From: Macrostomum hystrix | Lineage: Eukaryota; Animalia; Platyhelminthes | Direction of reading: 5' to 3' | Assembly: GCA_950097015.1 (NCBI GenBank) | Contig: CATNEN010000001.1 | Location: 19,964,001-20,028,000 of the forward strand | DNA length: 64,000 bases | Part shown: positions 3,147-61,638 of the stretch, piece by piece | How the letters are laid out: every line of letters starts with the position of its first letter | How positions within the stretch are numbered: position 1 is the first letter of the stretch | Notes under the pieces: generated by a model | What the model saw: only the letters and a program-made list of their open reading frames with translations | What the model was told of the DNA's origin: nothing | Database searches by the model: none | Position numbers and translations under genes: made by a program

Positions 3147-3268
3147 TTTATCGGGTCGGATCCAATTGAAAATCTATCTAGAAATGATTTCCTACACGAC
3201 TGAGTTGGTTTCATGATTTCAAATGATTTCCACTCGAACTTATTAACCTGGAAAGTCACCTAGAAAAT
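3147..3268 (+). repeat. Dispersed ~170-bp repeat, copy A (5'-truncated)
   Basis: TTTATCG.GTCGGAT.CAATTGAAAATC.ATCTAGAAATGATTTCCTACACGACTGAGTTGG shared with 17834-17959 and 26794-26963. Confidence 0.85.
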
Positions 3269-3278
3269 ATTATCTTGA

Positions 3279-4012
3279 AGTAGTAGGGCGAATTATGACA
3301 CTGCCGCATTAGCACTGGGGAGATAGGAAAGCAATGTAAAAGGATAGGAGCGGGGCTTACACAGTGGAGATATGCAGGCCAATCAGGTGGGTTTGTGCAG
3401 GAGCCCATTACTGTGCTTATGACACTGCCGCATTAGCACTGGGGAGATAGGAAAGCAATGTAAAAGGATAGGAGCGGGGCCTACACAGTGGAGATATGCA
3501 GGCCAATCAGGTGGGTTTGTGCAGGAGCCCATTACTGTGCTTATGACACTGCCGCATTAGCACTGGGGAGATAGGAAAGCAATGTAAAATGATAGGAAGG
3601 AAACGAATGCACTGCAGAGATAAGAGAAATGGCTGGCCTATCTCTGTGCATTAGGGATGGATTAACACTGCAGGGATAGGAAGAGAGGCCGGCCTATCTC
3701 TTTGCGCTGGGTGATTAACACAGCAGAGATAGGAGTAGAGGGGGTGTGGGGGTGTGGGGGCGAAGCCCCCACATTTTAATTAGCCTTTAATTTTCTTGGT
3801 CACTCTGCCTCTGACAAACGGAACTCGCTGGCGCTGGCCCATTTAACCTCCAAGCAGCTGCACTGAGAGAACGTTAAATGCTACCTTGATGTCTGTGATG
3901 CAGGTCATTGCAAGGTCCTGCCTTGCTGGTCTATCTCTCTCTTTGCATTGGGGGTGGGTTAACACTGCAGGGATAGGAAGAGAGGGTCCGCCTATCATTT
4001 GGCACTGCAAAT
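3279..4012 (+). repeat. Polinton left TIR, containing ~2.4 copies of a 124-bp internal repeat
   Basis: Reverse complement of 17085-17818 with only a few mismatches, mostly at the inner end; internal units start at ~3293, 3417, 3541. Confidence 0.95.
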
Positions 4013-4289
4013 AGTCCTCGGAAATTCCGTGGGGTCCTAGTGTGTGAACAAACGCCTATGTGTTTGCATAGTGGACTCTGTCGCAGGTAAATCTGTCTGA
4101 GAGGGAGAAAACAGTGAAACCACCATCTGTTTGCAGTGGGTATGGGCAACACTGTAGAGATAGGACAGTGGATGCGTAGCATAGATACATAAATTCAGCC
4201 TAATGTTATTATAAGTTTTCTTAGTATTACAAGTGTATGCGCCCACAGTCTCACCCACCCCATTACGTTAACCCACCCCACTCCGCTGG

Positions 4290-4297
4290 TATATAAG
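4290..4297 (+). promoter_or_regulatory. TATA box upstream of the PC4-like gene
   Basis: TATATAAG ~85 bp upstream of an ATG in strong Kozak context (ACCATGG, 4378-4384). Confidence 0.5.
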
Positions 4298-4380
4298 GGT
4301 GGGGATTTTTTATTATCGTTAAGAGAGGATTTCTGTTAAACTAATAGCCATTTCGTCACGGAAGTTTGATCCATGCTACC

Positions 4381-4974
4381 ATGGATCTTAGCGACGGCTT
4401 CAAAGTTCAAGTACAGGAGTATGAAGGCAATAGATTCATCGCTATCCGACGCTTCTACTCTTCTGACGGGGAGCTGAAGCCTGGAATCCCTGGATTCAAC
4501 TTGAACGTACTCCAATGGGAGAAGCTGAAGCAGCTAAGGCGCCAACTCGTGCAGGCTGCAGTCAACCGACGAAACGTCACTGCCAAGCTGGGCTCCGACA
4601 AGCTCGTAGAAGTCAAGCGAGGAGTCATCTGGCTCAAGCGACTGCCGGAGGACTGCACGGAGGATTTCCTGAGACGGAATTCGATCGAGATGACTCCCCG
4701 TCTGTGGCGAGCGCTGTGGTGCCATGTCGACCGGATCAGTAGTGAGCTGAGAGGAAAGTCACCGGAGTGCGAGTACGAGCTGGACCCTCAGGACATCAAG
4801 ACCGAGCCGGACATCGAGAATCGGGCGGGCCAACACTCTAGTGAGGATGCGGACGACGAGAAGACGCTGCTGATTTCCGAGTCAGACAACCTCCGAACCG
4901 CTTCCAGCTGCAGCCCAACTGTCGACGCCCAAAGCATTCGGCTGCATCCCACAGCAGGACAGCGACCTGTCTAA
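4381..4974 (+). CDS. PC4/Sub1-like ssDNA-binding / transcription coactivator protein, two PC4-like units; C-terminus probably frameshifted (alternative frame open to 5134)
   Basis: KVQVQEYEGNRFIAIRRFYSSDGELKPGIPGFNLNVLQWEKLKQ matches the PC4 core (VSVRDFKGKVLIDIREYW...[22 protein letters not shown]). Confidence 0.85.
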   Translation: MDLSDGFKVQVQEYEGNRFIAIRRFYSSDGELKPGIPGFNLNVLQWEKLKQLRRQLVQAAVNRRNVTAKLGSDKLVEVKRGVIWLKRLPEDCTEDFLRRNSIEMTPRLWRALWCHVDRISSELRGKSPECEYELDPQDIKTEPDIENRAGQHSSEDADDEKTLLISESDNLRTASSCSPTVDAQSIRLHPTAGQRPV

Positions 4975-5415
4975 GGATCCTTACTGGTATCAGGCCCGTG
5001 CGGCTGCGGGTCTCAGTGTCAACTGCTTGATTGGAAGCCGCAAGCGCAAACAGCCATGGCCTCTGCGTAGGAGTGATGCGATCAAGTTTCCGAAGCTGAC
5101 GGATGACTCAGATGAAAACAAGGACAACGAGTGAATTTCCAAGTGACAGTACATGCATCAAATAATTTCTAACTTCATTCATTTGGTCAAATGCGCACTC
5201 AGCTTATTATCTATCCAGCCATATTTCAGCAATATAGGCTACAGAGTAATTTTGCTCTGTGCTTCTCGCAATAGCTAATTTAACTGTCTTTTTTGGCTTT
5301 ATTTCTCGGTATATGTATCAAGACATTTTATAAACTACATTGTGTCAATACAACTTAAGAAAGTTGCTAAAGACAAAAAATAATATTGATTCTGACATCC
5401 TCTTCATGTTGGAAA

Positions 5416-6483
5416 ATGGAAAAGCTTTACTACAACCCCGCTCAGCCGGCCAGTTTCTCAGGTGCATCAAAGTTGCAGCAGCAACTAGGGAAAAATAATG
5501 AGGTGAAATCTAGAAAATACATTGAGCTGTGGTTAACTGAACAGCCCGTGCACACACTGCACAGGTCGGCTAGAAGGCGCTATCCCAGAGCACCAATCAT
5601 AGTGCGATCCATTGACGATCAATGGGAGCTTGACTTGATTGAGATGATTCCATTCGCAAAGTACAATAATGGCTACAAGTACATTCTCACATGCATTGAT
5701 GTGCTGTCTAAATGTGCATGGGCCAGGCCATTGAAAAATAAATCAGCTGCAGAAGTGCAGTCCGCATTCGAGAGCATTCTGAAATACTCAAAACGCCAGC
5801 CTCGCACAGTCCGCACAGATCAGGGGAAAGAGTTTCTTAACACTACTTTTCGCCAATTCTGCATAGAGCGGGGGATTCTGGCTTTCCCAACCAATAGTGA
5901 GCAGAAAGCAGCCATCATTGAGCGATGGAACAGAACTCTGAAGAGCAAAATTTGGCGGTATTTCACGTACAAAAGCACCCTGCACTGGGTTGACGTGCTG
6001 TCCAAGCTAGTGAAGTCCTACAACAGCACTTACCATAGAAGCATAAAAATGGCGCCAACAAGCGTCTGCAAAGAGAATGAATCTGAGGTCTGGATGAACC
6101 TGTACGATGGGAAAGCAATTGAGACAATAGAGAAGCTGAAGAAACCGAAATTCTGCGACAATCAGTTAGTGAGAATTTCCAATGCACCCAGGGTGTTCCG
6201 AAAGGGCTACAAGGCCAACTGGAGCGAGGAAGTGTACACTGTGGTGGCCAGGGCCCCGAAGCACTACCCGTACATGTACAAGATTAGAGACATGAAGGGG
6301 GAAGAGATTCGAGGCCTCTTCCATGAGCATGAGCTGCAGGCTGTTCCGGACTCACAGCGGTTGTATGTGATTGAAAAGATTTTGAAGACTGAGAAACGTC
6401 ATGGAAAAATCCGATATCTTGTGAAGTGGGCCGGCTACAACTCCACCGGGTGGGTGGATGAAAAGGACTTAAGAAAAGTCTAG
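5416..6483 (+). CDS. Polinton retroviral-like (rve) integrase with C-terminal chromodomain
   Basis: DDE triad (WELDL, RTDQGKEF, AAIIERWNRTLK); Polinton-type N-terminus YYNP..PASFSG; chromodomain YVIEKIL...RYLVKWAGY; intact ORF. Confidence 0.95.
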   Translation: MEKLYYNPAQPASFSGASKLQQQLGKNNEVKSRKYIELWLTEQPVHTLHRSARRRYPRAPIIVRSIDDQWELDLIEMIPFAKYNNGYKYILTCIDVLSKCAWARPLKNKSAAEVQSAFESILKYSKRQPRTVRTDQGKEFLNTTFRQFCIERGILAFPTNSEQKAAIIERWNRTLKSKIWRYFTYKSTLHWVDVLSKLVKSYNSTYHRSIKMAPTSVCKENESEVWMNLYDGKAIETIEKLKKPKFCDNQLVRISNAPRVFRKGYKANWSEEVYTVVARAPKHYPYMYKIRDMKGEEIRGLFHEHELQAVPDSQRLYVIEKILKTEKRHGKIRYLVKWAGYNSTGWVDEKDLRKV

Positions 6484-6520
6484 TAGTAAACCTATTTCGG
6501 TGATAAAGGTATTTTCTATT

Positions 6521-7350
6521 ATGAGAAACATTGTTATCAACAGTGAACATGCTGAAGGTACTTCTAGTGACTTTCATTTTCACCTGCCTTCACCTATTTA
6601 CTTGGATCGAAATGTGGACTATGAGGCTGGTCTGGTTGAAATCCATCTGCCTGTTGCATGGTTCAATCTTGACGAACCTTACTGCATCACTGTCTCAGTT
6701 GGAAGAGAGCACGAGGCCCTGGTTCTTCAACCTGGACGCTTTGCTAGAGTGGAGGAGCTGGTGGAGTGCCTGAATGAGCTGCTGACCAACTCTGAGTCTC
6801 TGTTCTTTGATGCGAGAAGCGACAGAGATGCTGAAATGGAGGCAGACAAATCGGGTCTGCTGGGGCGGCGTGGTAGTGCAAGAGAGTTCGCTATAAAATT
6901 TGAAATATGCAACTCAAGAACTGTTGTGCAAAACAGTACCGCGGAAGCAGAGCTGTTTCTTCCTCCTAACAAAATTCTGCAGTGGCTTGGATTCGGAAGT
7001 CAAGCAGTTACGATCCGACCTGGTCGCTTTGTGTCAAAGCATTACATTGGCTGCCCACGCACCAGCTAAATAATGTCCACTGCAGCATTGTTGAATCAAC
7101 TAACTGCAACTGCAGCTCCCTGCTGAGAACTGTTAGCATGAATTCTGAAATTGAATGGGGTTACTATCTGAGCAAAGTGTTTAAGAAAACGACATTCTTT
7201 CCGATTCAGAGAGTCAATTTCCTACAAAGTATTCGAATTCAACTGCGAGACATTTTTGACTGCACATTTATCGCGCAGACTTGCAGTCCTGTTTTGCTGA
7301 CCGTTCAGATTCGCGAAAAAAAATTCAATGAATTATCAGCAGCTGATTAG
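6521..7350 (+). pseudogene. Minor capsid (penton, PX-like), frameshifted at ~7063
   Basis: SDFHFHLPSPIYL...YEAGLVEIHLP..WFN motif; a single ORF in the second copy (56881-57690), split by a 1-nt deletion here. Confidence 0.8.
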
Positions 7351-7640
7351 GCAATACTCGGGAGCTCAAACAGGAGCTCAAAAGTCAGTACTTTATGGCT
7401 GCGGGAGTTCTCCAGGGCTTATGACGTACCAGCCTCCACCAGATGCTTCATCATCATCATTAACAGGGCTGATCAATAGCAGCCGTGGCAAAACAAAAAG
7501 TCCTAAGAAATCGAAACGAAAGCAGAAAAAAAATGAAAGAAGAATCAACTAGCCGGAACACTAGTCGCAAGAGAGGAAGGAAGACAAAGACTGGCAAGAA
7601 AAAGCTTAAGAAAAGGACTGACAAGAAAAGGAAAGCAACC
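7328..7640 (+). pseudogene. Basic Lys/Arg-rich core-like protein; frameshift in an A-run and 3' end deleted
   Basis: MNYQQLIRQYSGAQT...LYGCG plus K/R-rich tail; homologous to intact 57687-58070. Confidence 0.65.
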
Positions 7641-8587
7641 AGCGAATCGTCTCTGGGGGTGACCAGCTGTACCCGTACCATGCCTACTTCAAAGCACTGA
7701 TGGGCTCATCCGATGCCCAGCAACTCAAATTTCACCCTGCCGGTTTCTTGGAACCCGACTCAGCTGATGAGGACCACACTGAGAACCACAGGACCTCCCA
7801 ATGGAGGGAATATGTGGGACCACTCCTTAGCGACATTTTCCAGTGCCCTGTGTTTCTGCTGAACAATTTGCACCTGCACATCAAACTGGTGCCCAGTGAC
7901 GGAGCATTTGGAATCAGAGCTCCAGCCGCCAACAACACCGCCTACAGGATGGAAATATCGCACTGCATCCTCTATCTCCGCCGAGTCAAAGTTCTGCCCC
8001 ACATCAGCTTGGCTCACGAGCAGGGGCTGGCTAATCAGAATGCGCTCTACCCAATTGAGCGAACTGAAATGCAAAACTTCATCCTGCCCCAGGGAATTCA
8101 GTCAAAAAATATTGAAGGATTCACGCACGGAAAGCTCCCGAAATTCATCATGCTGGCCTTCGTCAACCACCGAGCCTTCAATGGGCACCATCATTCCAGC
8201 CCGTTCCAGTTCCAAAACTTCAACCTGAGTCAGCTTGCTCTCAAGAAAGGGGGTGAATCCATGTGCCACGGGGCATTTACACCTGAGAACAATTCGTTTG
8301 TCAGAGAATATTTGCACTACCTGAAAAGCTGTCAATCTGCGAGCCACACCAACTCGGTTCCATCGATTCCCTACCAGCTCTTCTCGAACGAGAACACTGT
8401 GTTCGCATTCGATCTGACACCCGAGGGAGCGGCTCTGTGGTACGGGCAGAAGGAGGGAAACCTGCGGCTGGAGATTCGGTTCCGACAGGCCTTGGATGAA
8501 GCCGTGTCCCTGATTGTCATGTGTGTGTATGACTCACTGATTGAGGTCACCAAGCACAGGGAGCTATTGCTGGACTATTCATCTTAA
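7641..8587 (+). pseudogene. Major capsid protein (double jelly-roll, PY), N-terminally deleted
   Basis: Near-identical to the C-terminal part of 58074-59357 (GKLPKFIMLAFV..AFNG...SPFQFQNFNLS, VFAFDLTP, GNLRLEIRF); first ~110 codons missing. Confidence 0.9.
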
Positions 8588-9132
8588 TGAAAGTTGATAT
8601 GGATGCCCTTCAGCTGCGTTCTCTTGCTAGATCCTTCCTGCCCAGCAATCGAATCTTGATAATCACCCTTTGCTTAAAGCAAAAGACCTGGATAATAAAC
8701 TGGGATGAAGGAAGAATGCGTGAGAAAATTCCCAATCACAACAGAATCAGCAGCTTCTTCTTGATAAAACACAGCGTCTCGTTTGGACACTGGGTTGCAT
8801 GTTTTGTTGGCAATGGAAATGTAGTTGAATTATTTGATTCTCTCGGTTGGAATGCACAGACTCTGAGTGCCATCCACCATTTTTTTGCTAATAAATTCAA
8901 GTTTCCTTTCCGCATGCTTTGCAATGTTAACCGAATCCAATGCAGTCAGTCGGACAAGTGCGGACTTTTCTGTCTCTATTTTGCATATCAAAGATTTCTT
9001 TTGAAGCGATCATTCGAATGGATTCTGCGAAATCTACACGTGAAAGAAAACTGCCCGTTGAATGACAGAATGCTTTGTCAGTTTGAAGCCAGCTTAAGAA
9101 AAAGAGGTTTATGGCGAAAAAGAAATAGTTGA
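8587..9132 (+). CDS. Adenain-like cysteine maturation protease
   Basis: Catalytic H/D/Q/C motifs GHWVA, ELFDSLG, RIQCSQSDKCGLFCLYF; position between capsid and ATPase. Confidence 0.92.
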   Translation: MKVDMDALQLRSLARSFLPSNRILIITLCLKQKTWIINWDEGRMREKIPNHNRISSFFLIKHSVSFGHWVACFVGNGNVVELFDSLGWNAQTLSAIHHFFANKFKFPFRMLCNVNRIQCSQSDKCGLFCLYFAYQRFLLKRSFEWILRNLHVKENCPLNDRMLCQFEASLRKRGLWRKRNS

Positions 9133-9149
9133 AATAAAGCCTAAGTGAG

Positions 9150-9803
9150 ATGGAGTCAGAAAGAGTGTACTATGATGTCCGCCTGCGACAGGGCAGCTGC
9201 ATGATGGTCTGCGGACCCACCAATGCTGGAAAGACAACCTTCGTGAAGCATCTAATACAGTACAGGGATGTATTATTCGACATCCAGCCTGGGAGAGTGC
9301 TCTGGTACTATGGAATCGCACAGCCAGCGCATGCTGAGTTGAGCAGTCTTGGTGTGCAATTGTATCAGGGATTACCCACTAACTTTGAGAGCTCATTGAT
9401 GAGCAATGCTCTGGTCATTTTTGATGACATGATTGATGAAACTTCTAACTCTGCCTCAATGCGAAATATTTTCACTGGACTCGCCCATCACCTGCCATGC
9501 TTTCTTGTAATGCTCACTCAGAATATGTTTTTCAAGGGCAAGGAGTTGCGGACCATGAGCTTGAACGCGATGTACTATGTGATCCTAAAAAACCCCAGAG
9601 ACCAGCTGCAGATCGCTGCATTGGGCAGGCAGTGCTTTCCAGAGAAGCCTGGCTTCCTGCTTGAGGTCTTCAAGCATGTCACAGCGCAGGGCAGGGGGAG
9701 CTACCTGTTTCTGGACTTTCACCCTTGCACTCCCGATGAGCTGCGAGTGCGAGCCAGAATTCTGCCCAATCAGGCCACATCTGGTTTATGCTTAAGAATA
9801 TAG
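9150..9803 (+). CDS. A32/FtsK-like DNA packaging ATPase
   Basis: Walker A GPTNAGKT, Walker B LVIFDD, LTQNMF, RTMSLNAMY...KNPRD, YLFLD; last few codons shifted versus copy 2. Confidence 0.95.
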   Translation: MESERVYYDVRLRQGSCMMVCGPTNAGKTTFVKHLIQYRDVLFDIQPGRVLWYYGIAQPAHAELSSLGVQLYQGLPTNFESSLMSNALVIFDDMIDETSNSASMRNIFTGLAHHLPCFLVMLTQNMFFKGKELRTMSLNAMYYVILKNPRDQLQIAALGRQCFPEKPGFLLEVFKHVTAQGRGSYLFLDFHPCTPDELRVRARILPNQATSGLCLRI

Positions 9804-9838
9804 GTTGAGAAATGCTATTAGCCTGAATTATTGCGACT

Positions 9839-10162
9839 ATGGAAGTGTTCGAAGCTCATCAAAGTTTATTTGAAGTCCTTGCCTCACACAAATATACAAT
9901 TAGCCTCAAGCGCACAATAATACAGCTGAGTCCGAAAGAAGCTTGCACTTTTCTTGTCGAGGCCTGCCACAACCTATTGGAAGAGAATTTGCCATTTTCT
10001 CTTGTTGAAAAGACAGCGCTATTGAAATCTAAAAATATAATCCGCAAGATTGCCCGGCAAAGAAAACAGAGTGACTTACTCAAAGCTTCTTTTATCAGAA
10101 TCCTCCCCATTCTGCTGAAACTTGTGAAAAAGAAGAGGAAAAGAGATGCACAAATTCAATGA
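9839..10162 (+). CDS. Conserved small Polinton/Maverick protein
   Basis: LVEACHNLLEENLPFS...K..IIRKIA motif recalled from Maverick conserved ORFs; homolog at 60606-60911. Confidence 0.65.
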   Translation: MEVFEAHQSLFEVLASHKYTISLKRTIIQLSPKEACTFLVEACHNLLEENLPFSLVEKTALLKSKNIIRKIARQRKQSDLLKASFIRILPILLKLVKKKRKRDAQIQ

Positions 10163-10823
10163 GATGGTTCTGATCTCAAGGTCCGAGTATGAAATGCTGA
10201 GGAGGAGTGCCAAGCCCATTGAGTCTGTGAGTGACACGGCCATAAAGCAGGCACAGATGAAATGCGATGATATCCTGTTGGCCCAAGACTGCCCAGATGA
10301 TTTGAAGACAGCCCTGTACCAGAGTGCAATGCAAAGCTTGCTGGCAAAGCGAAAGCAGACAGGAAAGGAAGCTGCATCAGAAGAGAAGAAAGCGAAGTTG
10401 ATGAAGGCTGAGATGCCTCAAAGAAGCTGGGAGGAAAAGATCTGCCAGTCAGTGCCACAGAAGCTCAAACCGAGGGCTCGGAGTCTATGGGCCATCCTAT
10501 CTGACAGCCAGTCTGCTATCCGGGTGTCCGATAATGGAGAGGTGAACATTTCTGGGAACTCGATTCCTAACTCAAACATTGTCGATTTGATTCTGCACAC
10601 AGTGAAGGACTCAAAAAGTTCTGGTCAGCCTGTTGGATGGCCCGCTTTCAGTGACTTGCTTCGCCAAAAAAATCTCAATGTGCCTATGTCAGCTGTTGGA
10701 AAATCTGTACATCAAGAAATTTTTGATACAATTGAAGATGCACAGCCTTCACTCAAAGGATTGGGCAACAGGTCTGCATGGCTGAGGTTGAACAGGGGGA
10801 GAAAACAGTATTTAAGAAAGTAA
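10146..10823 (+). CDS. Conserved Polinton/Maverick protein of unknown function
   Basis: GEV.ISG..IPNSNIVDLI...P.GW..F...L...NVP motif; C-terminal LKGLG putative protease site; homolog at 60913-61601. Confidence 0.7.
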   Translation: MHKFNEMVLISRSEYEMLRRSAKPIESVSDTAIKQAQMKCDDILLAQDCPDDLKTALYQSAMQSLLAKRKQTGKEAASEEKKAKLMKAEMPQRSWEEKICQSVPQKLKPRARSLWAILSDSQSAIRVSDNGEVNISGNSIPNSNIVDLILHTVKDSKSSGQPVGWPAFSDLLRQKNLNVPMSAVGKSVHQEIFDTIEDAQPSLKGLGNRSAWLRLNRGRKQYLRK

Positions 10824-10864
10824 CGATCATCGAATTATGCCGGTTTCGAGGCACTCGCTTGAGC

Positions 10865-11716
10865 ATGAACTACATAGACATTCAGGGCTTCCCGTGCGAT
10901 GGAGAGAAGGATGACTTCATCGTGAAGGAGTTGGCGATCCTTGAAGTCAGGAAAGGAAGCTATCACCTTTCACACCACGTGTACGCTCCACCGTATGATT
11001 GGCAGAGAGTTTCACCTGACATGCGAATGTACTACAAACAGCTTTCGAAAAATCTACATAAATTCAAGTGGACCGATGGAACCCGGCCATATTTGCAATT
11101 AGCTGACGACATTGTGAGCATTGGTAGCGGCGTCAACTGGACAAGCGGAGAGAAAAAATCGATTTTTCTAACTGAGTTGTTGGGCAGACTGGTCTACAAC
11201 TTAGACGATTTGGTCTCACATTCTAACAAAGACTCTGATACCGCATGTGCAGTGAGCAACTCATTGCTGTACTACAGCTGGCTGAAACCAACAGCTTGCA
11301 TCAACTTAAGAAGCGACAAGTGCTCATGGCATAGAAGCTCAAGCAATTGCAGTAGCAGCAGCAGCCAGACTTGCAATCAGAATGATGATCAAAGGCGCTG
11401 CAACCTTGAGAATCACCAACCTGGTTGGTGGAGTGGATCTGAGACTGACTGGAGGCAGAGGCGCCCAGCTTCCTCTAAGGGAGCTGGCTCTCAGCATGGC
11501 TTATGTGATCTACCGACCCGTGTGGCCCAGAGAGCTCATCAAGCAGATGCGGAATCCCAGAGTTACCCTACTGCTCTACCCTACTGGGCAACTGAGCATC
11601 TGTGGCGCAAAGAGCTACGCCGACTCGGTCAGGGCTGCCCGGCGCTTCGTCGCTATGCTGCATCGCCGAGTGCCGGCTCAGCTGCTGCCTCGTCAAGCTT
11701 TCGGTGTGAGGATTAA
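10865..11716 (+). CDS. DEDD/DnaQ-like nuclease-fold protein; C-terminal extension overlaps the TBP-like gene
   Basis: YIDIQGF...FIVKELAI...APPY....H...W..G..PY pattern typical of Maverick DEDD-like ORFs; ExoI motif reads DxQ rather than DxE. Confidence 0.65.
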   Translation: MNYIDIQGFPCDGEKDDFIVKELAILEVRKGSYHLSHHVYAPPYDWQRVSPDMRMYYKQLSKNLHKFKWTDGTRPYLQLADDIVSIGSGVNWTSGEKKSIFLTELLGRLVYNLDDLVSHSNKDSDTACAVSNSLLYYSWLKPTACINLRSDKCSWHRSSSNCSSSSSQTCNQNDDQRRCNLENHQPGWWSGSETDWRQRRPASSKGAGSQHGLCDLPTRVAQRAHQADAESQSYPTALPYWATEHLWRKELRRLGQGCPALRRYAASPSAGSAAASSSFRCED

Positions 11717-11957
11717 GACTATCACTGCGCATGGAAAACTTGCAATTCAAAATGTGCTAAATCTAACAAGTTTGTCACATCTGCTACCAAATGCTGAATA
11801 TGAACCCGAATCATTTTCTGCTTTAATTTTCAAATTACGATTTTGCAAGTGTCTGCTTTTTCACAGTGGCTCATTTGTTCTAAGCGGTGCTCGATCTTTG
11901 AATCAGCTACGAACCGACAGCATCCGTCTGCGCGAATTAGTTTTTTCTCTATTATAA
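11382..11957 (+). CDS. TATA-binding protein (TBP)-like protein encoded by the Polinton
   Basis: Two TBP repeats: ITNLVGGVDL...MRNPRVTLLLYPTGQLSICGAKS..DSVRAARRF and NAEYEPESFSALIFKL...LLFHSGSFVLSGARS (cf. TBP [34 protein letters not shown] / YEPELFPGLIY...LLIFVSGKVVLTGAK). Confidence 0.9.
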   Translation: MMIKGAATLRITNLVGGVDLRLTGGRGAQLPLRELALSMAYVIYRPVWPRELIKQMRNPRVTLLLYPTGQLSICGAKSYADSVRAARRFVAMLHRRVPAQLLPRQAFGVRIKTITAHGKLAIQNVLNLTSLSHLLPNAEYEPESFSALIFKLRFCKCLLFHSGSFVLSGARSLNQLRTDSIRLRELVFSLL

Positions 11958-12636
11958 AATATAATCGGAAAATAATTTATCACGCACTTTGTTTGTCGCC
12001 ATACGGTTGACAAAAACAACGTTAACTGGAGCTCAAACTTCTTCAAGATGTATTTATTACATTTATTATCCTCAACAAGTTGAATATGAAACAAAAAGAT
12101 TGAAAACCCAACCGTAATGTAACCGAACATGAAATTAATAAAAAAACATTTTAATACACAATTAAAGAAGCAAATGACGTTGAAAATGAGAAACCCCGGA
12201 TGCAAACATTTAGCCCATACTGAAAAAAAAACTGCCTATGACAACGCAGATAAAAAAAGCAACTAATTTGCATCCTTATCGAGATGAGGAAGGATGATCA
12301 CTAAGTTGATTTTACTTTAACGAGAGAATTAAAATTGTTACAGAGAAACGAGATTTTAATTAAAAAAATTAAAAATTAAAAAATAAGTTCAATTTATTTG
12401 TATCACGCGTTCTTCAAATGGAAACATTTGAAACAATTACTATTCAGATGCAACGCTGGCATGAATGAAAAAAGTAGTATTAGTAGTCTCCGAAACAAGA
12501 TCCAACATACTGAGCATGCTAGCAAATCTGAGCATTCCAGAAACAGAAAACTGTTTAAAATTTAAAAGTAAAAACGACAATTAAAAAAGCAACAATTGTC
12601 CACGACAACTTCTAGCCGTCACTACTTTTTATGAAG

Positions 12637-15600
12637 TTAACCAAACCTGATGCGCTTCTGCTGGCCATGGAAATCCTGGGTCAGAGCATAGTGGCCATAG
12701 GGAAGACTTCGATTGCTGCTCAGCCATACTCGCTTGTCTTCCCAAACTGAGAGGCTTCGCTTCTCCAATACTGATGTGTAAACGCTGTGCTTCTTTGAGA
12801 CAATTGTGGTCATGGCAACCGTCTGCTCCTGTTTCGAATTGAGCGCGGCAGCGTAGTCCGCATGAGTGATTTGAAGCTTCACAACAGATTGTTTCACGCC
12901 CTTGGCAGTTTTTTTGGCTTTCGCAGTTGAACTCTCAGCGGGAAGAAATGAATACAGCTTTGGCCGCAGCAGGACCCATTCTTGGTAGGTACCACCGCAG
13001 GATTCATCTTTGACGCAGCCAAGCTTGCCTTTCAGTTCCTCGGAGTAGTGCGGATGGTCTCGGGGATAGTTCGACGAATCAAGGATATTTTCCTCTCTGA
13101 GCTTCGGGATCACATGCGATGTGAGCTCGTGATTTCTGAAGGCGAGAAAAACGAGTCCGTGTCGCCACCGCATACCATCATGTCCTTGGAGCCGTCTGGT
13201 TCACAGAAAAGCGGCCGGAGCTTATCATACAGCAGGCTGTACATGCACATCTTCGACAAGTCGAGCACTGCCTGGCCGACGAAAATGGCCTTGTCAAGCT
13301 TTACTTTGTCTTTCCTGAACTGAAAGATGGATAGATTTTCATTTACAATAAAAAATCCGGTGCAATTTGGTCGAGAGGAATAAGTTTCAACTTGAGTAGC
13401 GCTTGTGTAGATGCGCACATCACACCGCTTGCGCACGTTCTCCATCGTCTTTCCGAACAAAGAATTGTTCTTTAGTTTGTAGAAATCCTTGCTAAAATCG
13501 GATGTTGCAAGTGCCCTCTTGCTATTATTGCTTGCAATGTACGAAGCAAATATTTTCTTCTGGTTGAATTCAATCATCTTGAGAATTGACTTGATCTTCA
13601 TTCCGTGCTGCAGGTAGAAGCGCAAGATGGTGCTGTGGACAATATAGCCATCCTTGTCCGAACAGGTCAGCAGAAGTTTCTCTGTTGCAGAGAACTTAAA
13701 ATCGACATTGCCTGAGCGCTGCTCCGCGATTTGCTTCCACAATTCCAGCATAAACGGTGAAAACTGGTCAACCTGCGGCTTAGATTTCCTTGGCGCAAAA
13801 GGTAATTCCTCTGTCACATCATGAATATCGGCTGGATATTCAAGGTCAACCTGCACGAGATAGGCTACTTCAGCTTCAGGATCGAGAGATATGAACTTTT
13901 TGGCGTCCCAAGACTGCAGTTCCTTTTCTGTCACCCACCTGAATCCGCTGCATGGAAGCGATTGAGAAAGTGCGTGTCCGTACAAGTTGTTCATGTCAAT
14001 CGGCATGAGACTCACGCAGTCCTGCTGCTCATCATAGTCAGGCAAACTTTGGTTGTTTGCTTTAACATGGTGCACATTAACGAAAGACATGCCACCTCTA
14101 ATGCCTTGTTCGAATAAATGGTACATGTCAGGGTCTGTTAGCTGTTCGAGCACAACACCAGTTGATTTGAGAGCAGAGTCGTAAGACAGACCAGGTGTAG
14201 TTAGATAGTGCACTGGATCGAGCCCATCTTCAGATAGACTGGCGTGACGAAATGCCTCAAAAATGTCTGCTAACTGGCGCACATCCATTTCCAGGTAGGC
14301 TAGCATGTAGTCTCGCAGACTACGACATTCGAATGCGGCCCATGCTGCCTTTGCTCGATGGTATTCCTCATCAGAAATCGCACAGTCGGTAAGACGGTTG
14401 AAAAATGCATTTTTCGGTGGCAGACTAGTCTGTTCAAGAATGTTGAACTCGGTCAGGAAATCATACGGAAAGACTCCCTTTTGGCGAATAATGTCTTTTG
14501 AAAGCAGAGGCCTAGACTCTAGCAGCTGCAGAGTCAGTTTACAGTCGTTCTCTGAAAGATTGGAAAACAAATTTGCCAAACTTCCCTTTAGAAAGCAGAG
14601 AATCGATGAACTGAATGGTAAACATTAGTGGCAGTGTCTTCCCGTTTTTTGTGTAGGTGCCAACAGGAAACTCCACCCGAAGTGATAGATAGCGCTCCGA
14701 AGTCTGTGGGACAACATTGAGTTTCCAATTTGGCATGCTACCAAGTGCGGTAGAAAGAAGAAGATGCAAATCGTAACCGCCCAAATTGTGAAAAATGACA
14801 GGCAAAAACCTGCGACGAAGCTGAGCCCGCATGTTGCACTCCTGGCACGCGGCTCCTTTGAACTGCCCCGTCAGGTGATCATGGTCAAAATGTTTGTCAG
14901 CGGAACTGCTGAACTCAGATTGACAGTTGTGGCATGATGTGGCGTCATTGAAATCTTTCATGTCCGTTAGAGAAGATTTATCCGCTGCTTGGTGACTGTG
15001 CACCCGGTTCCACTGAAAGATTTCCCTGGAAAGCTTTTCAAGGGAACTGAGAAAAGCAAGGATGCACTCCTTGGGATCAGCATTGCAAAATGATTGGTAC
15101 ATGTCTGCTTTAGGACGAAGTTCAGGCCCCTTCATGTACGCTCTGGAAACCACTAAGTAGGCTGCTGCACATGGCTCATGTTGAGCGATCAGATCGGCAG
15201 AGTCTGGTTTTTGTTTCAAAATGGCTTCCAGGTCGGCATAGGTCACAAATGGTGGACTGATTGTCTTCTGAAATTCCTTGAACTTGATTTCGTTTGCTCC
15301 AGGAACAGGAAGGACTTCCTTGATGGGATTTTCAGAAGCGATTTGGCATTCTCTGCTGTGCTCTAGAAGTCTCTCGCTGCAGTAGAATGAGGTCAAGCAT
15401 CTGGTGCACCACTTTCTCATGGCAAGGCCGGCGCGGCTGTTCATCAGCCTGTCAAAGTTATTAATTGCACACCAGTGCTCTAATCCATAGCTGCCGCTGA
15501 CCAACAGAAGCATTAGATGAGTTCGACCTCCTGGCTCATGCTTGAGACGACGGAGCAAGCTCACGTTACCTCGCTGCCATAGAAATGCAGAAATGCAAAT

Positions 15601-16326
15601 TCCTGGATTGCTAGACTCAACGAGATCAATGTCAGCGACACTGACGGGCATGGAGATTCCAGCGAAGTCAAGCTCGTTCAATCATTCATCGTAAGACGAC
15701 AGTCTGCCAGGCGATTTTTTTATCTTTGGATCGGCACTGTGCAATGCGGCAAGACAGGCGTACATGAAGCAGTCGTTGCCGGTACTTGGCGGATTGACGA
15801 CAGCTTTCTTGTTTTTCAGACTGGCTGGGAGGTTAAATCTGGATGTTCTACCCTGGCGGAATCGAATCGGATTGTACCTAGCTAGATGTATATCCAGGAA
15901 GTTTATCTGAGTTAGTGTCCAACCACTACCATTCGTGTTCAACATGCTAACACTCTCACTTCTGGGTGCCCTTGGTCTAATAATGCCATTGATCACCTGA
16001 CTCAGTACATTGGACCGTTGCTTAGCAGCGACCACCTCAGTAGCCTGTTGCTTTGCCGCAGCCATAACTAATCGGCGGAAAGAGCGCGCTGCTTCTTCGT
16101 TGCCAGGCAGCAGCTGATGCCCGCGGTGCCGATTGATCTTGGAGTTTTTTGAGCATTTGCCAAGTCCACGGAAAGGATCTATTTCGGAGCACTGCCAGCA
16201 GACTGTCCATCTTGAAAGATTGGTGCATCTTGAATGCCGGTCGGCCTGCAGTCCTCCTTGCTTGCACTTCTTGCAGTCAGTGCACACCTCATAGTGCCAA
16301 GTGGATGCCATTATATTTATTTTCAA
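12637..16326 (-). pseudogene. Protein-primed family B DNA polymerase (pPolB) with vOTU-like and HNH/EndoVII-like domains; one in-frame stop (15682-15684) and two frameshifts (~14580, ~13145)
   Basis: GSGW, AVVNP...NDCF, DHDHLTGQFKGAACQECN, VIFHNLGGYD, FIDS, KGVFPY, GIRGGMS, DMNNLYG, KLKNNSLFGKTMENVRKR, GDTDS, LRPKLYS, AKGV, DKR, LPYGH. Confidence 0.95.
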
Positions 16327-16914
16327 AAATTAATTTTTGCTTGTTAAACTAGACTAATAAATCGCAGCAGAAGCGTTGGATTTGGGTGCTTATGTACCCA
16401 GACCACTGCCCTGGTTTGCAATACAGACCCATTTCCCATGCAGCATTTTGATCAACGGTCAGCGTTATCTATTCCCGGCTTCCATATTATTGAGCGGTCA
16501 GTGTGAGCATGGGGTTTGTGGATTTTATGACTGTCTCGCGCAGACCTCGACCACTAATTCAGTTTACAACTTAATTGGGGCGCACAAGCAGGTAGGCAAC
16601 CACGGCTGAACCTAGCAACAGCTCCTTAACTTGGAGGTGTGGGCTTATTGTTCAGTTTCCTTTTCACAAATAGCAGGCCTTGTTTTCAATTAGGCTAAAT
16701 AGATCCAACCTTATGCAGAAGCGTAGCAAATGCTATTTGTTAAGAATTCGCGAACAAATGCATAATAGAGATTAGTAAAAACTTTGCAGCACTATTTCCA
16801 ATAGCTTTTGTGAGCATATTCTACCCACTCTGTTCACTTTTTCTCTGAATACGACCCATATATTCCCAGTGACAATAAGTTATGTTAGTCTGCCTCCCTT
16901 CACTCTTTAATATC

Positions 16915-17035
16915 TCTGCAAGTGCGGCAGTGTCATAGGCACAGCAATGGGCTCCTGCACTTTCTGTGCAAGTGCGGCAGTGTCATAGGCAAAGCAATGG
17001 GCTCCTGCACTTTCTGTGCAAGTGCGGCAGTGTCG
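16915..17035. repeat. 50-bp subterminal tandem repeat related to the TIR-internal repeat
   Basis: AGTGCGGCAGTGTC recurs at 16921, 16971, 17021; shares GCGGCAGTGTCATA..CACAG.AATGGGCTCCTGCAC with the TIR units. Confidence 0.8.
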
Positions 17036-17084
17036 TAACATCCCATACATCTGATTATGATTCGGTAAGCCTTAACCATTTAGC

Positions 17085-17818
17085 ATTTGCTGTGCCAAGT
17101 GATAGGCGGAACCTCTCTTCCTATCCCTGCAGTGTTAACCCACCCCCAATGCAAAGAGAGAGATAGACCAGCAAGGCAGGACCTTGCAATGACCTGTATC
17201 ACAGACATCAAGGTAGCATTTAACGTTCTCTCAGTGCAGCTGCTTGGAGGTTAAATGGGCCAGCGCCAGCGAGTTCCGTTTGTCAGAGGCAGAGTGACCA
17301 AGAAAATTAAAGGCTAATTAAAATGTGGGGGCTTCGCCCCCACACCCCCACACCCCCTCTACTCCTATCTCTGCTGTGTTAATCACCCAGCGCAAAGAGA
17401 TAGGCCGGCCTCTCTTCCTATCCCTGCAGTGTTAATCCATCCCTAATGCACAGAGATAGGCCAGCCATTTCTCTTATCTCTGCAGTGCATTCGTTTCCTT
17501 CCTATCATTTTACATTGCTTTCCTATCTCCCCAGTGCTAATGCGGCAGTGTCATAAGCACAGTAATGGGCTCCTGCACAAACCCACCTGATTGGCCTGCA
17601 TATCTCCACTGTGTAGGCCCCGCTCCTATCCTTTTACATTGCTTTCCTATCTCCCCAGTGCTAATGCGGCAGTGTCATAAGCACAGTAATGGGCTCCTGC
17701 ACAAACCCACCTGATTGGCCTGCATATCTCCACTGTGTAAGCCCCGCTCCTATCCTTTTACATTGCTTTCCTATCTCCCCAGTGCTAATGCGGCAGTGTC
17801 ATAATTCGCCCTACTACT
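17085..17818 (-). repeat. Polinton right TIR
   Basis: Reverse complement of 3279-4012, ends CTACTACT followed by TSD TCTTGA. Confidence 0.95.
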
Positions 17819-17833
17819 TCTTGACTCTGACTA

Positions 17834-17959
17834 TGTCAGTACTATATGGCTGTCGTCGGTGTCCCAATAGATTTGAGCACAGTTTATCGAGTCGGATTCA
17901 ATTGAAAATCAATCTAGAAATGATTTCCTACACGACTGAGTTGGCTTCATGATTTCAAA
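17834..17959 (+). repeat. Dispersed ~170-bp repeat, copy B
   Basis: Matches 26794-26920 and 3147-3225. Confidence 0.85.
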
Positions 17960-19414
17960 CTAACATTTCTGCTAACAGTAGACTTTGAGGATATGCCCCG
18001 AATTTTATTTACCTCCCGTCGACCCCCCACCCCAACCCGCGCCCCACACTGGTGGGCCACCAGTGCGCCGCCTGGCCAAACTATACGCCCTCCCACCAGT
18101 GACCGGTGGGTGGGCGTATAGTGGGGCGTACAGCGGGGCGCTGGTGGGAGGGCGCGGGTTGGGCGCGGTTGTCCCACCGGGGGGCCTCGTTTGAACCGCT
18201 GCTGCTGCTGCTGGCCAGTGGTCTCCTCACTTGCGTGCCCGCCTCTGTGGTGTCAGGCACCGCCTGTATAGCTGCACATCGCCTTTTTTCGAAGGTCCGC
18301 GCGTACTTACGGCAGGACGCTTAGCGGGCTGCTGTAAAAGGGTTAACGAGGGCATAAAATGTCGGTGCCAATTCGGCGAGTGCTGACCCAATGAAAAGGT
18401 CGCACTTTGACCAAATTGGCTCCTCAAGATTTCAATTCGCCTGCTTACCTCTGTCGGCTCCTTAAGCTTCCGTACGACGCCCATTATGCGTGGGCGTCGC
18501 CTTAATTTGTTCCTCTGGCATTATGTTTCCTTGTTATTCATTCTCTTCCTTTATTCTTAATCGTTATGAGATCAATTCTTAGTACTTTAATGTAACTCCC
18601 CAGTTGGGTCGTTACGGCCATAAACTTATTTTACGTTACAGTTCTTTCCTCGAAGATTCTTAAGGACCCCACGCAGACCCATTCTTTCTTTTCAAGCCTC
18701 GAGAAATAAAGTGACTAAGAAAGGAACTGACTAATTCATAGTTCGCTACATCGTATTCTCTTTGGGGGTCTTCTAGCCCTATTCGGAGAGGAGGAATCAT
18801 TGAAACATTGCAGGTAGTGATGTGGAGTGTGCTGCGGGAATCGAGTGGGAATGTGAGCCAGCGGAATTTTTCAAATTTTTAGGCAATCATTAATCGTGAC
18901 CCACCTAGCAGCTGGCCACAAACAAGGTCATTAATCTTAGGGCCGGGTTTTGGGCGGCGGTGAATTAAGTAGCCGTCGAATCCCTTTTCCCTGGATCTGT
19001 CTAGACCCCTGTAGGAATGACTGATTGCGGCCATAGCTTTTATTGTATGAGTAGTTTAGGTCATAATTCCCCTCCAAACCGCGATCAGATATTGGGAATC
19101 ACTCGGGCATTATGAGTGATCATTAATTCTTCATGTCCCCACTTCTTTACAGTCTTCGAGCCCAGCTCGACTTTATGACCTCCTCTCTTAAATACATGCA
19201 AATGTCACTGTAGGCAGGTCGGCGCCTGCGCTTCCCATTGTCCTGGCGGAGTAACAATTATTGGCCGACTGTCGGTGGCTGCTCGTGAAGGAGCATCTGA
19301 CGTTTCTCGCCGCTGGTTCATTGGGTAATCGGGGTGGCCATCGCCGCTTCGATTCCTCGATGACAGGCTGGCGCGAATGTGGGTTATTTTGATGAATTTC
19401 GAGGTTGGCGTGCT

Positions 19415-20702
19415 CACCCGTGTTTACAGCCTTAGAGCCTTTACGATCATGACAGTAACGCCGCCTATTTGGCTCAGCGAACATGATCGATGATCAAAGA
19501 TCATGTTCGCTATAGCCAATTAGGCTTTATAATGTATTTAGATACAGCACTTCCGATGGCTCAAGATATGGCAGCGTTTTAAATAGGGAATTTTTTATAT
19601 AATGGGAAATAGGAACGGAATTTTTCCAGTTAAAGCTAGGTAGTATTAGTAAAAAGGGACGAATTAGAGCTTTGAAAGAATTGTTCTAATAATTTGCTAA
19701 TCATGTTCTAATCATGCAGTAGAAGATGGCAGCTTTTTAAATAGAATATTTAGCTATAAAGTTGATTGCCAATTGCCAAGTATTTGACAGGTTGCTAAAT
19801 GGGTAGATGCATGCCTATCAGTAAAATTGTCTACACACTCTATGAAGAAAGTTATCAGCTATTTTGATAAAAAACACTAAATAGCCTTTGCAATTGATTC
19901 TTTTTTATAATTCAAATATACAACCCATTTAACTGGAATGTTCCATAAATAAGTTTTGAATTGTGGTTTCATTAGGCCTACCATTTACCAAATTTTCCAT
20001 GTGCTACAATTGCTAGGACAGGACACTCGATTAGCTAAAAGTAGTAGGCCTAGCTAAAAAGTTTCAAACTTCTTAGGCATTTGATATAGAAATGCAAGTT
20101 TTATGGAACTTTTTTAATTCAAAAATATCATACTTGCTTTTTAGCTATTAAAGTAACCAAGCATTTCATTTTTAGTATATAAGAAGATGCTATAGTATAG
20201 GCCTATTGTTTTTCCCCACAAAAAATCTTAGCCTTATGATTTTATGCAAATGTATATAAATATATATTCAATGTATTAATTAGCCATGTTGTTTCTTATT
20301 GATACAAAAGTTTATTTAATAGCTAGGCCTAAGTACATAATTATTACTAATTAAGTAATTATTGACTTATTTAATTTTCAAGATTAGAAATTTTTATAAG
20401 CTCAGGTTTATAAAGTAGTTATAAAGTAGCAGGTTTATAAAGTTTTTATACTAGCTATTCCTACTGTTTTTCATTCTTAAAAATATTTAATATATTAGTT
20501 TTGTATAATGCTCTTTTCTTTTATTAATTAGCTACTTAGTAAGAGCTTTAGCCGCCCATTTGAGCCCTTTTAAGTTTAGGGATCAATAGCAAAGCTTTAG
20601 TTTAGAAAAGGCAGTGAAGCTTAAAAAAATAGGGACTTTTTGTGTAAAGCAGCATGGCTTCAGGGCATGCAGCGGAGCTTCAGAGCGGAGCTTCAGGGCA
20701 GG
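19415..20702 (+). repeat. KDZ element left TIR
   Basis: Reverse complement of 32970-34257, colinear with no net indel (19415 pairs with 34257; 20641 pairs with 33031). Confidence 0.95.
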
Positions 20703-20855
20703 TGGCGGAGCTTCATGGTAGGCAGCCGAGCTTCAGGGCAGGTGGCGGAGCTTTAGGGCAGGTGGCGGAGCTTCATGGTAGGCAGCCGAGCTTCAGGGCA
20801 GGCAGCAGAGCTACAGGGCAGGCAGTGGAGCTTCAGGGTAGGCAGCCGAGCTACA
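20655..20855 (+). repeat. 21-bp subterminal tandem repeat (GGCAGGCAGCGGAGCTTCAG-like), short array
   Basis: About 9 units, inverted relative to 32050-33020. Confidence 0.9.
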
Positions 20856-32049: not shown

Positions 32050-33020
32050 CCCTGAAGCTCTGCTGTCTTCCCCTGAAGCTCCACTGCCTGCCCTAAACCT
32101 CCGTAGCCTGCCCTGAAGCTCCGCTGTCTATTCCTTAATCTCCGCTGCCTGCCCTAAAGCTCCGTCACCTGCCCTGAAGCTCCGCTGCCTGCCCTGATTC
32201 TCGGCTGCCTACCCTGAAGCTCTGCTGCCTGCCCTGTAGCTCGGCTGCCTGCCATGAAACTCCGCTGTCTATTCCTTAATCTCCGCTGCCTGCCCTAAAG
32301 CTCCGTCGCCTGCCCTGAAGCTCCGCCGCCTGCCCTGAAGCTCTGCTGCCTGCCCTGAAGCTCTGCTGCCTGCCCTGTAGCTCGGCTGCCTGCCCTGAAG
32401 CTCCGCCACCTGCCCTGTAGCTCGGCTGCCTACCCTGAAGCTCCGCCACCTGCCCTGAAGCTCCGCTGCCTGCCCTGAAGCTCGGCTGCCTACCCTGAAG
32501 CTCCGCCACCTGCCCTGTAGCTCCGCTGCCTGCCCTGTAGCTCGGCTGCCTACCCTGAAGCTCTGCTGCCTGCCCTGTAGCTCGGCTGCCTGCCATGAAA
32601 CTCCGCTGTCTATTCCTTAATCTCCGCTGCCTGCCCTAAAGCTCCGTCGCCTGCCCTGAAGCTCCGCCGCCTGCCCTGTAGCTCCGCTGTCTGCCCTGTA
32701 GCTCGGCTGCCTACCCTGAAGCTCCACTGCCTACCCTATAGCTCTGCTGCCTGCCCTGATGCTTGGCTGCCTACCATGAAGCTCCGCCACCTGCCCTGAA
32801 GCTCCGCTGCCTGCCCTGTAGCTTGGCTGCTTACCATGAAGCTCTGCCACCTGCACTGAAGCTCCGCTGCCTGCCCTGTAGCTCTGCTGCCTGCCCTGTA
32901 GCTCGGCTGCCTGCCCTGAAGCTCTGCTGCCTGCCCTGTAGCTCCACTGCCTACCCTATAGCTCTGCTGCCTGCCCTGAAGCTCCGCTCTGAAGCTCCGC
33001 TGCATGCCCTGAAGCCCTGC
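32050..33020 (-). repeat. 21-bp subterminal tandem repeat, long array (~45 units)
   Basis: CTGAAGCTCCGCTGCCTGCC-like units, contiguous with the right TIR. Confidence 0.95.
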
Positions 33021-34257
33021 TGCTTTACACAAAAAGTCCCTATTTTTTTAAGCTTCACTGCCTTTTCTAAACTAAAGCTTTGCTATTGATCCCTAAACTT
33101 AAAAGGGCTCAAATGGGCGGCTAAAGCTCTTACTAAGTAGCTAATTAATAAAAGAAAAGAGCATTATACAAAACTAATATATTAAATATTTTTAAGAATG
33201 AAAAACAGTAGGAATAGCTAGTATAAAAACTTTATAAACCTGCTACTTTATAACTACTTTATAAACCTGAGCTTATAAAAATTTCTAATCTTGAAAATTA
33301 AATAAGTCAATAATTACTTAATTAGTAATAATTATGTACTTAGGCCTAGCTATTAAATAAACTTTTGTATCAATAAGAAACAACATGGCTAATTAATACA
33401 TTGAATATATATTTATATACATTTGCATAAAATCATAAGGCTAAGATTTTTTGTGGGGAAAAACAATAGGCCTATACTATAGCATCTTCTTATATACTAA
33501 AAATGAAATGCTTGGTTACTTTAATAGCTAAAAAGCAAGTATGATATTTTTGAATTAAAAAAGTTCCATAAAACTTGCATTTCTATATCAAATGCCTAAG
33601 AAGTTTGAAACTTTTTAGCTAGGCCTACTACTTTTAGCTAATCGAGTGTCCTGTCCTAGCAATTGTAGCACATGGAAAATTTGGTAAATGGTAGGCCTAA
33701 TGAAACCACAATTCAAAACTTATTTATGGAACATTCCAGTTAAATGGGTTGTATATTTGAATTATAAAAAAGAATCAATTGCAAAGGCTATTTAGTGTTT
33801 TTTATCAAAATAGCTGATAACTTTCTTCATAGAGTGTGTAGACAATTTTACTGATAGGCATGCATCTACCCATTTAGCAACCTGTCAAATACTTGGCAAT
33901 TGGCAATCAACTTTATAGCTAAATATTCTATTTAAAAAGCTGCCATCTTCTACTGCATGATTAGAACATGATTAGCAAATTATTAGAACAATTCTTTCAA
34001 AGCTCTAATTCGTCCCTTTTTACTAATACTACCTAGCTTTAACTGGAAAAATTCCGTTCCTATTTCCCATTATATAAAAAATTCCCTATTTAAAACGCTG
34101 CCATATCTTGAGCCATCGGAAGTGCTGTATCTAAATACATTATAAAGCCTAATTGGCTATAGCGAACATGATCTTTGATCATCGATCATGTTCGCTGAGC
34201 CAAATAGGCGGCGTTACTGTCATGATCGTAAAGGCTCTAAGGCTGTAAACACGGGTG
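32970..34257 (-). repeat. KDZ element right TIR
   Basis: Reverse complement of 19415-20702. Confidence 0.95.
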
Positions 34258-56474: not shown

Positions 56475-56781
56475 CGCAGGATAACCTTTACCAGTATGTA
56501 AGGACAACACTGGCAATTGATTTTGACACTATTTATCACAGGATAAAAATCACAGAATAAAAATTGCAGGATAAAAACCACAGGATAAAAATCACAGGAT
56601 AGTCTCAACCTATCTGTAAGGATAACACTATCAATTGATTTCGACACTATTTATCACAGGATAAAAATCACAGAATAAAAATTGCAGGATAAAAATCACA
56701 GGATAGTCTCAACCTATCTGTAAGGATAACACTATCAATTGATTTCGACACTATTTATCACAGGATAAAGGATCACAGGAT
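56475..56781. repeat. Tandem repeat related to the 90-bp array, abutting the truncated integrase
   Basis: GGA.AACACT..CAATTGATTT.GACACTATTTATCACAGGATAAA at ~56501, 56620, 56723. Confidence 0.88.
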
Positions 56782-56847
56782 CTGGTCAAGTGGGCTGGCT
56801 ACAACTCCACTGGGTGGGTGGAGGAGAAAGACTTAAGAAAAGTGTAG
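56782..56847 (+). pseudogene. Integrase chromodomain C-terminal remnant
   Basis: LVKWAGYNSTGWVEEKDLRKV*, matching the end of 5416-6483 with mostly synonymous changes. Confidence 0.9.
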
Positions 56848-56880
56848 GTAAACTATGAATATTATATTATTATAAACTCT

Positions 56881-58070: not shown

Positions 58071-58073
58071 ACA

Positions 58074-59905: not shown

Positions 59906-59917
59906 AGCCTGAAAGAC

Positions 59918-60565: not shown

Positions 60566-60605
60566 GAATAGGTTGAAAATGTATCTTGCCCGAATTACTG
60601 CAACA

Positions 60606-60911: not shown

Positions 60912-60912
60912 G

Positions 60913-61601: not shown

Positions 61602-61638
61602 TCGAATTCTGCTGGTTTCAAGGCACGGTCGCTTGAGC

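Follow-up and report, generated by a model that had tools for sequence, protein, structure and literature searches.

When DNA is copied from a protein primer, one entire strand is displaced. PRD1, phi29 and adenovirus, between which Polintons are the presumed link, each carry a single-stranded DNA (ssDNA)-binding protein. The ssDNA-binding proteins (SSBs) of PRD1, Bam35, phi29 and adenovirus are each system's own and structurally unrelated (PMC11886824; 10.1101/2021.03.25.437074). A literature search, thin on subscription journals, found no paper on a Polinton PC4 or SSB: PC4 goes unmentioned in the accessible parts of 10.64898/2026.06.19.733378 and of one supplement of PMC11131425, and neither an SSB nor TBP is mentioned in those of PMC11161782. 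The closest viral counterpart by predicted structure, MOSUB of a Branchiostoma lancelet adintovirus (UniProt A0A5H3CIS2), is one map label in Supplementary Fig. S2 of PMC8502044 with no occurrence in the main text, and the accessible text of that paper discusses neither its tandem architecture nor its function; TBP is named in the legend of Fig. 5 for MELD viruses (PMC8502044). Going by the title of PDB entry 4bg7, phage T5 has a viral PC4 homologue tied to replication. Among cellular proteins, human PC4 forms a type II homodimer, with one unit per chain, and contacts DNA through R70, R86, R100, K101, F77 and W89, with tyrosine as a natural substitute (PMC4350104), and Pur-alpha I-II is a type I PC4-like domain, an intramolecular dimer (PMC7549692).

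A Polinton of Macrostomum hystrix begins with a PC4-like gene

The window, a stretch of 64,000 nt from Macrostomum hystrix, holds a Maverick/Polinton of 14.5 kb at 3279-17818. Polintons are recognized here by TIRs, an (AGT)2 end motif and a 6-bp target-site duplication (PMC8097293), and the element has all three: its TIRs (3279-4012 and 17085-17818) have 736-nt arms that are 99% complementary, the left one starting with the (AGT)2 motif, and the same hexamer stands on either side at 3273-3278 and 17819-17824. One ~70-nt sequence stands in both flanks (3160-3240 and 17890-17960), each time in the same orientation, and the Polinton therefore seems to have inserted into a tandem repeat.

The gene content is also that of a Polinton. 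On the plus strand we found a retroviral-type integrase with a chromodomain (5416-6483; PF00665, E 5.9e-14), an adenain-like protease (8587-9132; PF00770, E 0.0013) and an A32-like packaging ATPase (9150-9803; PF04665, E 0.0045), the last two with scores under the curated Pfam cut-off, as well as a divergent TBP-like gene (11382-11957; PF00352 in two stretches, E 4.3e-24). The protein-primed DNA polymerase B (12637-16311, minus strand; PF03175, E 3.6e-11) points inward from the right end and is fragmented into four ORFs. The candidate ORFs for the jelly-roll major and minor capsid proteins had no Pfam, PHROGs or PDB sequence match. The PC4-like ORF (4381-4974, plus strand, 197 aa) is the first gene of the element. 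It is probably accessory: the gene set given for many Mavericks consists of eight core genes, and PC4 has no occurrence in the accessible text of that description (PMC8097293).

A partial second copy of the Polinton lies at 56780-62676. It is 78-89% identical and has neither termini, PC4-like gene nor polymerase; it does contain the TBP-like gene, but because it is truncated, the absence of PC4 there is uninformative. The TBP-like copies occupy 11382-11957 and 62156-62722, and in both copies the upstream ORF, in another frame (10778-11716 and 61639-62487), overlaps the TBP-like ORF by ~330 nt.

The gene encodes a PC4 unit followed by a divergent second unit

An earlier note on this DNA had proposed that the ORF holds a clear PC4 core followed by a second, degenerate unit. 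The first is borne out by unit 1 (4381-4566, plus strand, aa 1-62), which matches PF02229 at aa 3-51 with E 2.2e-10 and 40.3 bits against a cut-off of 25 and has human PC4 and MoSub1 as its PDB sequence matches. Unit 2 (4567-4758, plus strand, aa 63-126) is divergent and, searched alone in Pfam, matches no family, PF02229 included. A profile of unit 2 nevertheless matches a canonical PC4 profile, made of 312 units out of 131 other proteins, with probability 90.65 and E 1.3e-6 over 63 columns; none of 60 column shuffles scored as high (best 14.3, against 32.3), and the reversed alignment scored 7.6. The match between the unit-2 and unit-1 profiles is weak (probability 18.7, E 0.0013). In a quick tree, one branch sets the unit-1 rows apart with support 90 and another the unit-2 rows with support 99; with 91 rows, 70 columns, 60 of the 312 canonical units and an incomplete thorough search, this tree gives no order of events.

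The relatives behind these profiles come from a search among 1.84 billion representatives, which returned 186 matches; from the 150 that were listed, 17 were picked by eye for long coverage. Two of them, the algal four-repeat protein P0027 and the single-unit PC4 P0124, were left out of the counts, which with the window included rest on 16 rows (unit 1 in 15, unit 2 in all 16). A net basic core was found in 13 of 15 rows. Many of the proteins P0004-P0045, among the matches listed, have two to four canonical PC4 units, and the two that are named come from green algae.

Other searches added little. Word-seeded protein searches gave one and two matches, and the atlas matches, to PC4 clusters at 0.87-0.90, are leads only. 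Among viral contigs, queries with the PC4 protein or its alignment, and with the TBP-like and ATPase proteins, yielded no confirmed relative, and phage records gave no match. The one metagenome match (L001, E 2e-4) was rejected: it lies antisense to a 733-aa ORF that it overlaps, in a bacterial CRISPR-like locus.

The window copy is broken after the two units

The two units are followed by an acidic linker (4759-4884, plus strand), and the acidic tail noted before is real: aa 127-168 contain 14 D/E and 3 K/R. The linker also includes the sequence IKTE (4795-4806), which had been put forward as a SUMO site. We rejected this candidate as unconserved, because only 1 of 12 relatives has the psi-K-x-E consensus, which also turns up in 4.4% of shuffled tails.

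At ~4886 the window copy switches frame. Contigs of all four sequencing runs compared (X1-X4), which belong to one study and one of which may be the window's own source, show a short indel against the window at this point, within the interval (~4880-4910) that the earlier note had marked for a check of raw reads. Past the break, a tail continues in the shifted frame (4887-5134, plus strand), which is open from 4874 to 5134 and carries PQQD..L..DP.WY at 4949-4990 and RKRK...L.R from 5039, with RKRK itself at 5039-5050. The relative P0001 runs through without interruption (247 aa, 63% over the core); its homology to the window changes frame at the break, and its C-terminus matches the shifted frame with 48% identity over 67 aa (E 2e-13). 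Of the single-letter differences from the other copies, 3 of 4 upstream of the break are silent in the ATG frame; downstream, 6 of 7 are silent in the shifted frame and 0 of 7 in the ATG frame. The continuous P0001, the run contigs and the silent differences together show that the tail is genuine coding sequence and that the window copy is damaged. It is broken after the two units, by mutation or by assembly error, and the RKRK motif, first noticed in an alternative frame, belongs to the true C-terminus. Programmed frameshifting was rejected, because the other copies and P0001 differ at the break. As most of these differences are silent in the frames that code, the PC4-like gene is judged to be under constraint. 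Other genes of the element also have indels, near 7066, 7315, 7526, 13146 and 14596, the last two in the polymerase and relative to X1 contigs.

Both the PQQD..L..DP.WY motif and the basic cluster are found in P0001 and P0002. The former is absent, by the pattern used, from P0083 and P0020; the latter is kept in the tail of 10 of 12 relatives, a raw count without a chance control.

The product is predicted to fold as a single-chain pseudo-dimer

AlphaFold2 with an 18-row alignment gave a model of pLDDT 89.8 with two strand-strand-strand-strand-helix units, unit 1 opening with a strand that amounts to a single bridge. The canonical PC4 proteins P0027 and P0124 were part of this alignment, a possible bias of the model. 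Folded alone without an alignment, unit 2 came out all helix at pLDDT 57.8, which is uninformative. The unit 1 model superposes on human PC4 (6ycs) with an rmsd of 1.0 over 63 residues. Foldseek against the PDB matched PC4 over one unit only and gave nothing at E 0.001 or better. A VIA-align comparison with 48,161 chains ranked Pur-alpha I-II first (Z 10.3, rmsd 3.9, 117 aligned, residues 1-126), the sole chain with a Z of at least 8, followed by Whirly and MRP1/2. Human PURA I-II aligned with Z 11.3 and an rmsd of 3.2 over 119 positions, and Pur-alpha chains overall with Z 10.1-11.3 over 115-121 residues. In the predicted model, compared with 3k44 and 8cht, the two beta4-alpha repeats pack as in Pur-alpha I-II, that is, as type I. 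The proposal of a single-chain pseudo-dimer is backed by the unit-2 profile match and by the predicted fold, and we predict that the product of the PC4-like gene is such a pseudo-dimer of two PC4-type units.

This architecture sets the protein apart from canonical PC4 proteins. Unit 1 shares 30% identity with human PC4/Sub1/MoSub1 (1pcf, 6ycs, 4usg, 4bhm) and keeps R86 and the aromatic at W89. Human PC4, however, pairs two copies of one unit, whereas the window protein would pair two unlike units within one chain; it also has no N-terminal regulatory region, has R100/K101 replaced in unit 1 and carries a long acidic-then-basic tail. With Pur-alpha I-II, Whirly and MRP1/2 it shares the single-chain two-repeat fold. 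The best match among viral predicted structures was MOSUB (E 2.4e-4; TM 0.71 by query length over 167 columns, covering both units, at 16% identity), from the same kind of element. Our finding is thus only partly new, since MOSUB matches the whole fold.

The likeness to Pur-alpha brings up a different function, that of a nucleic-acid chaperone for RNA or host chromatin, which would act through RNA binding, silencing relief or competition with host PC4 and whose tail motif would bind a host factor. The proteins with the best structural matches (Pur-alpha I-II, Whirly and MRP1/2) bind both RNA and DNA, the closest full-length relatives, P0001 and P0002, retain the tail motif, and the adapter-marked contig described below suggests expression from integrated copies. 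On sequence grounds, however, the ancestry of the two-unit gene is PC4, not PUR: identity is 30% to PC4 (for unit 1) and 8-9% to Pur-alpha, and the protein has no PUR or Whirly Pfam match. Given this ancestry and the absence of the motif, by the pattern used, from P0083 and P0020, we regard the chaperone function as doubtful. Compared with Pur-alpha and Whirly, the window protein is probably an independent fusion that started from PC4.

Equivalents of the PC4 contact residues are split between the two units

We mapped the contact residues of PC4 through the PDB sequence alignment of unit 1. Unit 1 has the R86 equivalent in 15/15 rows, an aromatic (Y/F) at W89 in 15/15 and an aromatic at F77 in 8/15; a basic residue at the R70, R100 and K101 equivalents occurs in 0/15 rows each. 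Unit 2 has K/R at position 74 in 16/16 rows and R99 in 15/16, aligned to R70 and to R100/K101, and an aromatic at the W89 equivalent in 1/16, in a register that differs by one to two columns between alignments. The full PC4 contact set is thus found within neither unit and is split between the two. We infer from these alignments that residues of unit 1 and unit 2 could form a single composite ssDNA site. Because contact residues are missing from each unit, binding may be weaker than that of PC4 or unlike it.

The PC4-like gene and most other genes have different promoter boxes

The element contains one canonical TATA box, TATATAAG (4290-4297, plus strand), the sole TATAWAWR on either of its strands. 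It lies 91 nt 5' of the PC4-like ATG, as anticipated, and had been placed next to the TIR; at 278 nt from the inner TIR end it is near rather than adjacent. The other genes follow a different pattern, with TAAGAA 46-75 nt 5' of 6 of 9 other gene starts, that of the TBP-like gene included (background 10.7%, p ~1e-4). TTAAGAA boxes stand at 5355 (before the integrase gene), 6469, 7606, 9094, 9792, 10812 and 11306 (before the TBP-like gene), and in the second copy near 56834, 57977, 59859, 60563, 61585 and 62081, where 9/9 TAAGAA sites are on the plus strand. In both copies the box precedes the integrase gene, the structural and ATPase genes, 10865 and the TBP-like gene. Given this enrichment (p ~1e-4) and the return of the box in the second copy, the element likely has a transcription programme of its own, and the TTAAGAA box is a candidate site for the element's own TBP. 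The PC4-like gene (TATA) and the TBP-like and structural genes (TTAAGAA) belong to different promoter classes.

The TBP-like protein itself is 78% identical to a Macrostomum lignano protein; five relatives were found, and both named ones are from that species. Aligned to an archaeal TBP, it keeps both repeat-2 phenylalanines, the DNA-kinking residues of TBP, while in repeat 1 the corresponding positions are Pro and Tyr.

One contig hints at where transcription of the PC4-like gene begins. The loose start of an X4 contig (4327-5394) equals the 3' part of the Smart-seq2 start adapter (10.1101/2022.01.12.476004), which suggests a cDNA library and a likely mRNA 5' end at 4327 on the plus strand; this is a hint, as the runs were labelled DNA by guess and contigs cannot prove an mRNA start. 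The putative start lies 37 nt past the first T of the TATA box, with an indel between the two in other copies. The usual spacing is ~25-32 nt, so that 37 nt is slightly longer. Run X3 has the same adapter on another contig, as well as a contig covering 4376-5392. Reads cover 9 of 30 bins of the element in X3 and 7 of 30 in X4, where missing cover is no evidence.

These promoters bear on the suggestion of the earlier note that the protein and the TBP-like gene make up a viral transcription-initiation module. As such a cofactor, the protein would work with the TBP-like protein and host RNA polymerase II, and might, for instance, keep the DNA bubble open at TTAAGAA promoters. The two genes share one element, TTAAGAA before 6/9 other gene starts makes a private transcription programme likely, and run X4, which bears the adapter, has contigs that resemble each of the two genes. 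Adenovirus E1A is likewise a TATA-driven first gene, a likeness that we count in favor of a cofactor. Yeast Sub1 uses its ssDNA-binding domain in initiation and its C-terminal region in elongation (PMC9600219), and the viral protein, like Sub1, has a long tail after the domain. The ORF, on the other hand, begins at the PC4 domain and has neither the SEAC nor the lysine-rich region found at the N-terminus of human PC4 (PMC9600219); because yeast Sub1 acts via other regions, this is compatible with a coactivator role. The partner named for Sub1 in the accessible text is TFIIB, with TBP unmentioned (PMC9600219), and no TFIIB-like Pfam match was found in the element. The PC4-like and TBP-like genes lie 6.4 kb apart behind different promoter boxes, and the map text of the MOSUB-bearing adintovirus, which may miss labels drawn in the picture, has no TBP label. 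We consider the cofactor possible, though on the unlikely side.

The neighborhood of the gene could point instead to a helper of excision, end processing or integration, which would anneal or melt DNA at the TIR ends and have no part in elongation. The PC4-like gene adjoins the integrase gene near the TIR, and the T5 homologue is linked to recombination-dependent replication by the title of 4bg7. Adjacency is weak evidence by itself, however, and the integrase gene has the other promoter box (TTAAGAA), which leaves this role very unlikely in our estimate.

A possible early helper of protein-primed replication

At roughly even confidence, we favor the reading that the PC4-like protein is an early ssDNA-binding helper for the element's protein-primed replication. 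What speaks for it is the ssDNA-binding fold, the host-type promoter and the lack of any other SSB candidate, the Pfam scan of 14 element ORFs having given no other SSB match. The two PC4-type units are predicted to fold into one asymmetric single-chain pseudo-dimer, which would be likely to bind ssDNA. The gene would likely be made early, from a TATA promoter that the host can read, the basic tail would take the protein into the nucleus, and the protein would coat or melt the displaced strand during protein-primed replication. Fusion may have let the halves diverge, with the base-stacking aromatic in unit 1 and the backbone-binding basic residues in unit 2, and a self-paired chain would not need to pair with host PC4.

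The layout of the element is consistent with a replication helper, as the polymerase at the right end and the PC4-like gene at the left end both point inward. In PRD1, too, TP/pol and the SSBs P12/P19 occupy opposite ends and are read inward, a likeness that is positional only: P12 has an OB-like fold (PMC11886824). More broadly, the PC4-like protein would by analogy share its job with PRD1 P12/P19, the SSBs of phi29 and Bam35 and adenovirus DBP, all of unrelated folds, and with the T5 PC4 homologue. Against a role in replication, we count the X4 contigs ~90% like the TBP-like gene, which fit its joint expression with the PC4-like gene, and the fold alone is no proof of function, because Pur-alpha and Whirly also work in transcription and on RNA.

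A bolder scheme would join the two roles. Polintons would have recruited PC4 and fused it into an asymmetric dimer with split DNA-binding residues, which would act as the SSB in replication and would also hold the bubble open alongside the element's own TBP; host TATA recognition would switch on the PC4-like early gene and the viral TBP would then act on the TTAAGAA genes, a cascade within 14.5 kb. We think it improbable that this holds in full.

The single-chain PC4 is a concrete SSB candidate for Polintons, for which our literature search found none assigned, and would also be an independent case of the step from homodimer to fused dimer seen in Pur-alpha and Whirly. The protein is small and predicted to be well folded, and can be tested in vitro apart from the element. 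Its interest is tempered by the fact that the gene is already a map label in the adintovirus paper and that its function is deduced.

Other elements in the window and the samples

Runs X1 and X2 contain diverged paralogous PC4-like genes (contigs at 4625-4672 and 4742-4802), a sign of several element families within these samples. Elsewhere in the window, an LTR-retrotransposon gag-pol region with RT, RNase H, integrase and a zinc knuckle lies on the minus strand at 35004-39070. A pair of 1441-nt inverted repeats (19415-20855 and 32817-34257), 98% complementary, 12 kb apart and with internal tandem repeats, is another element.
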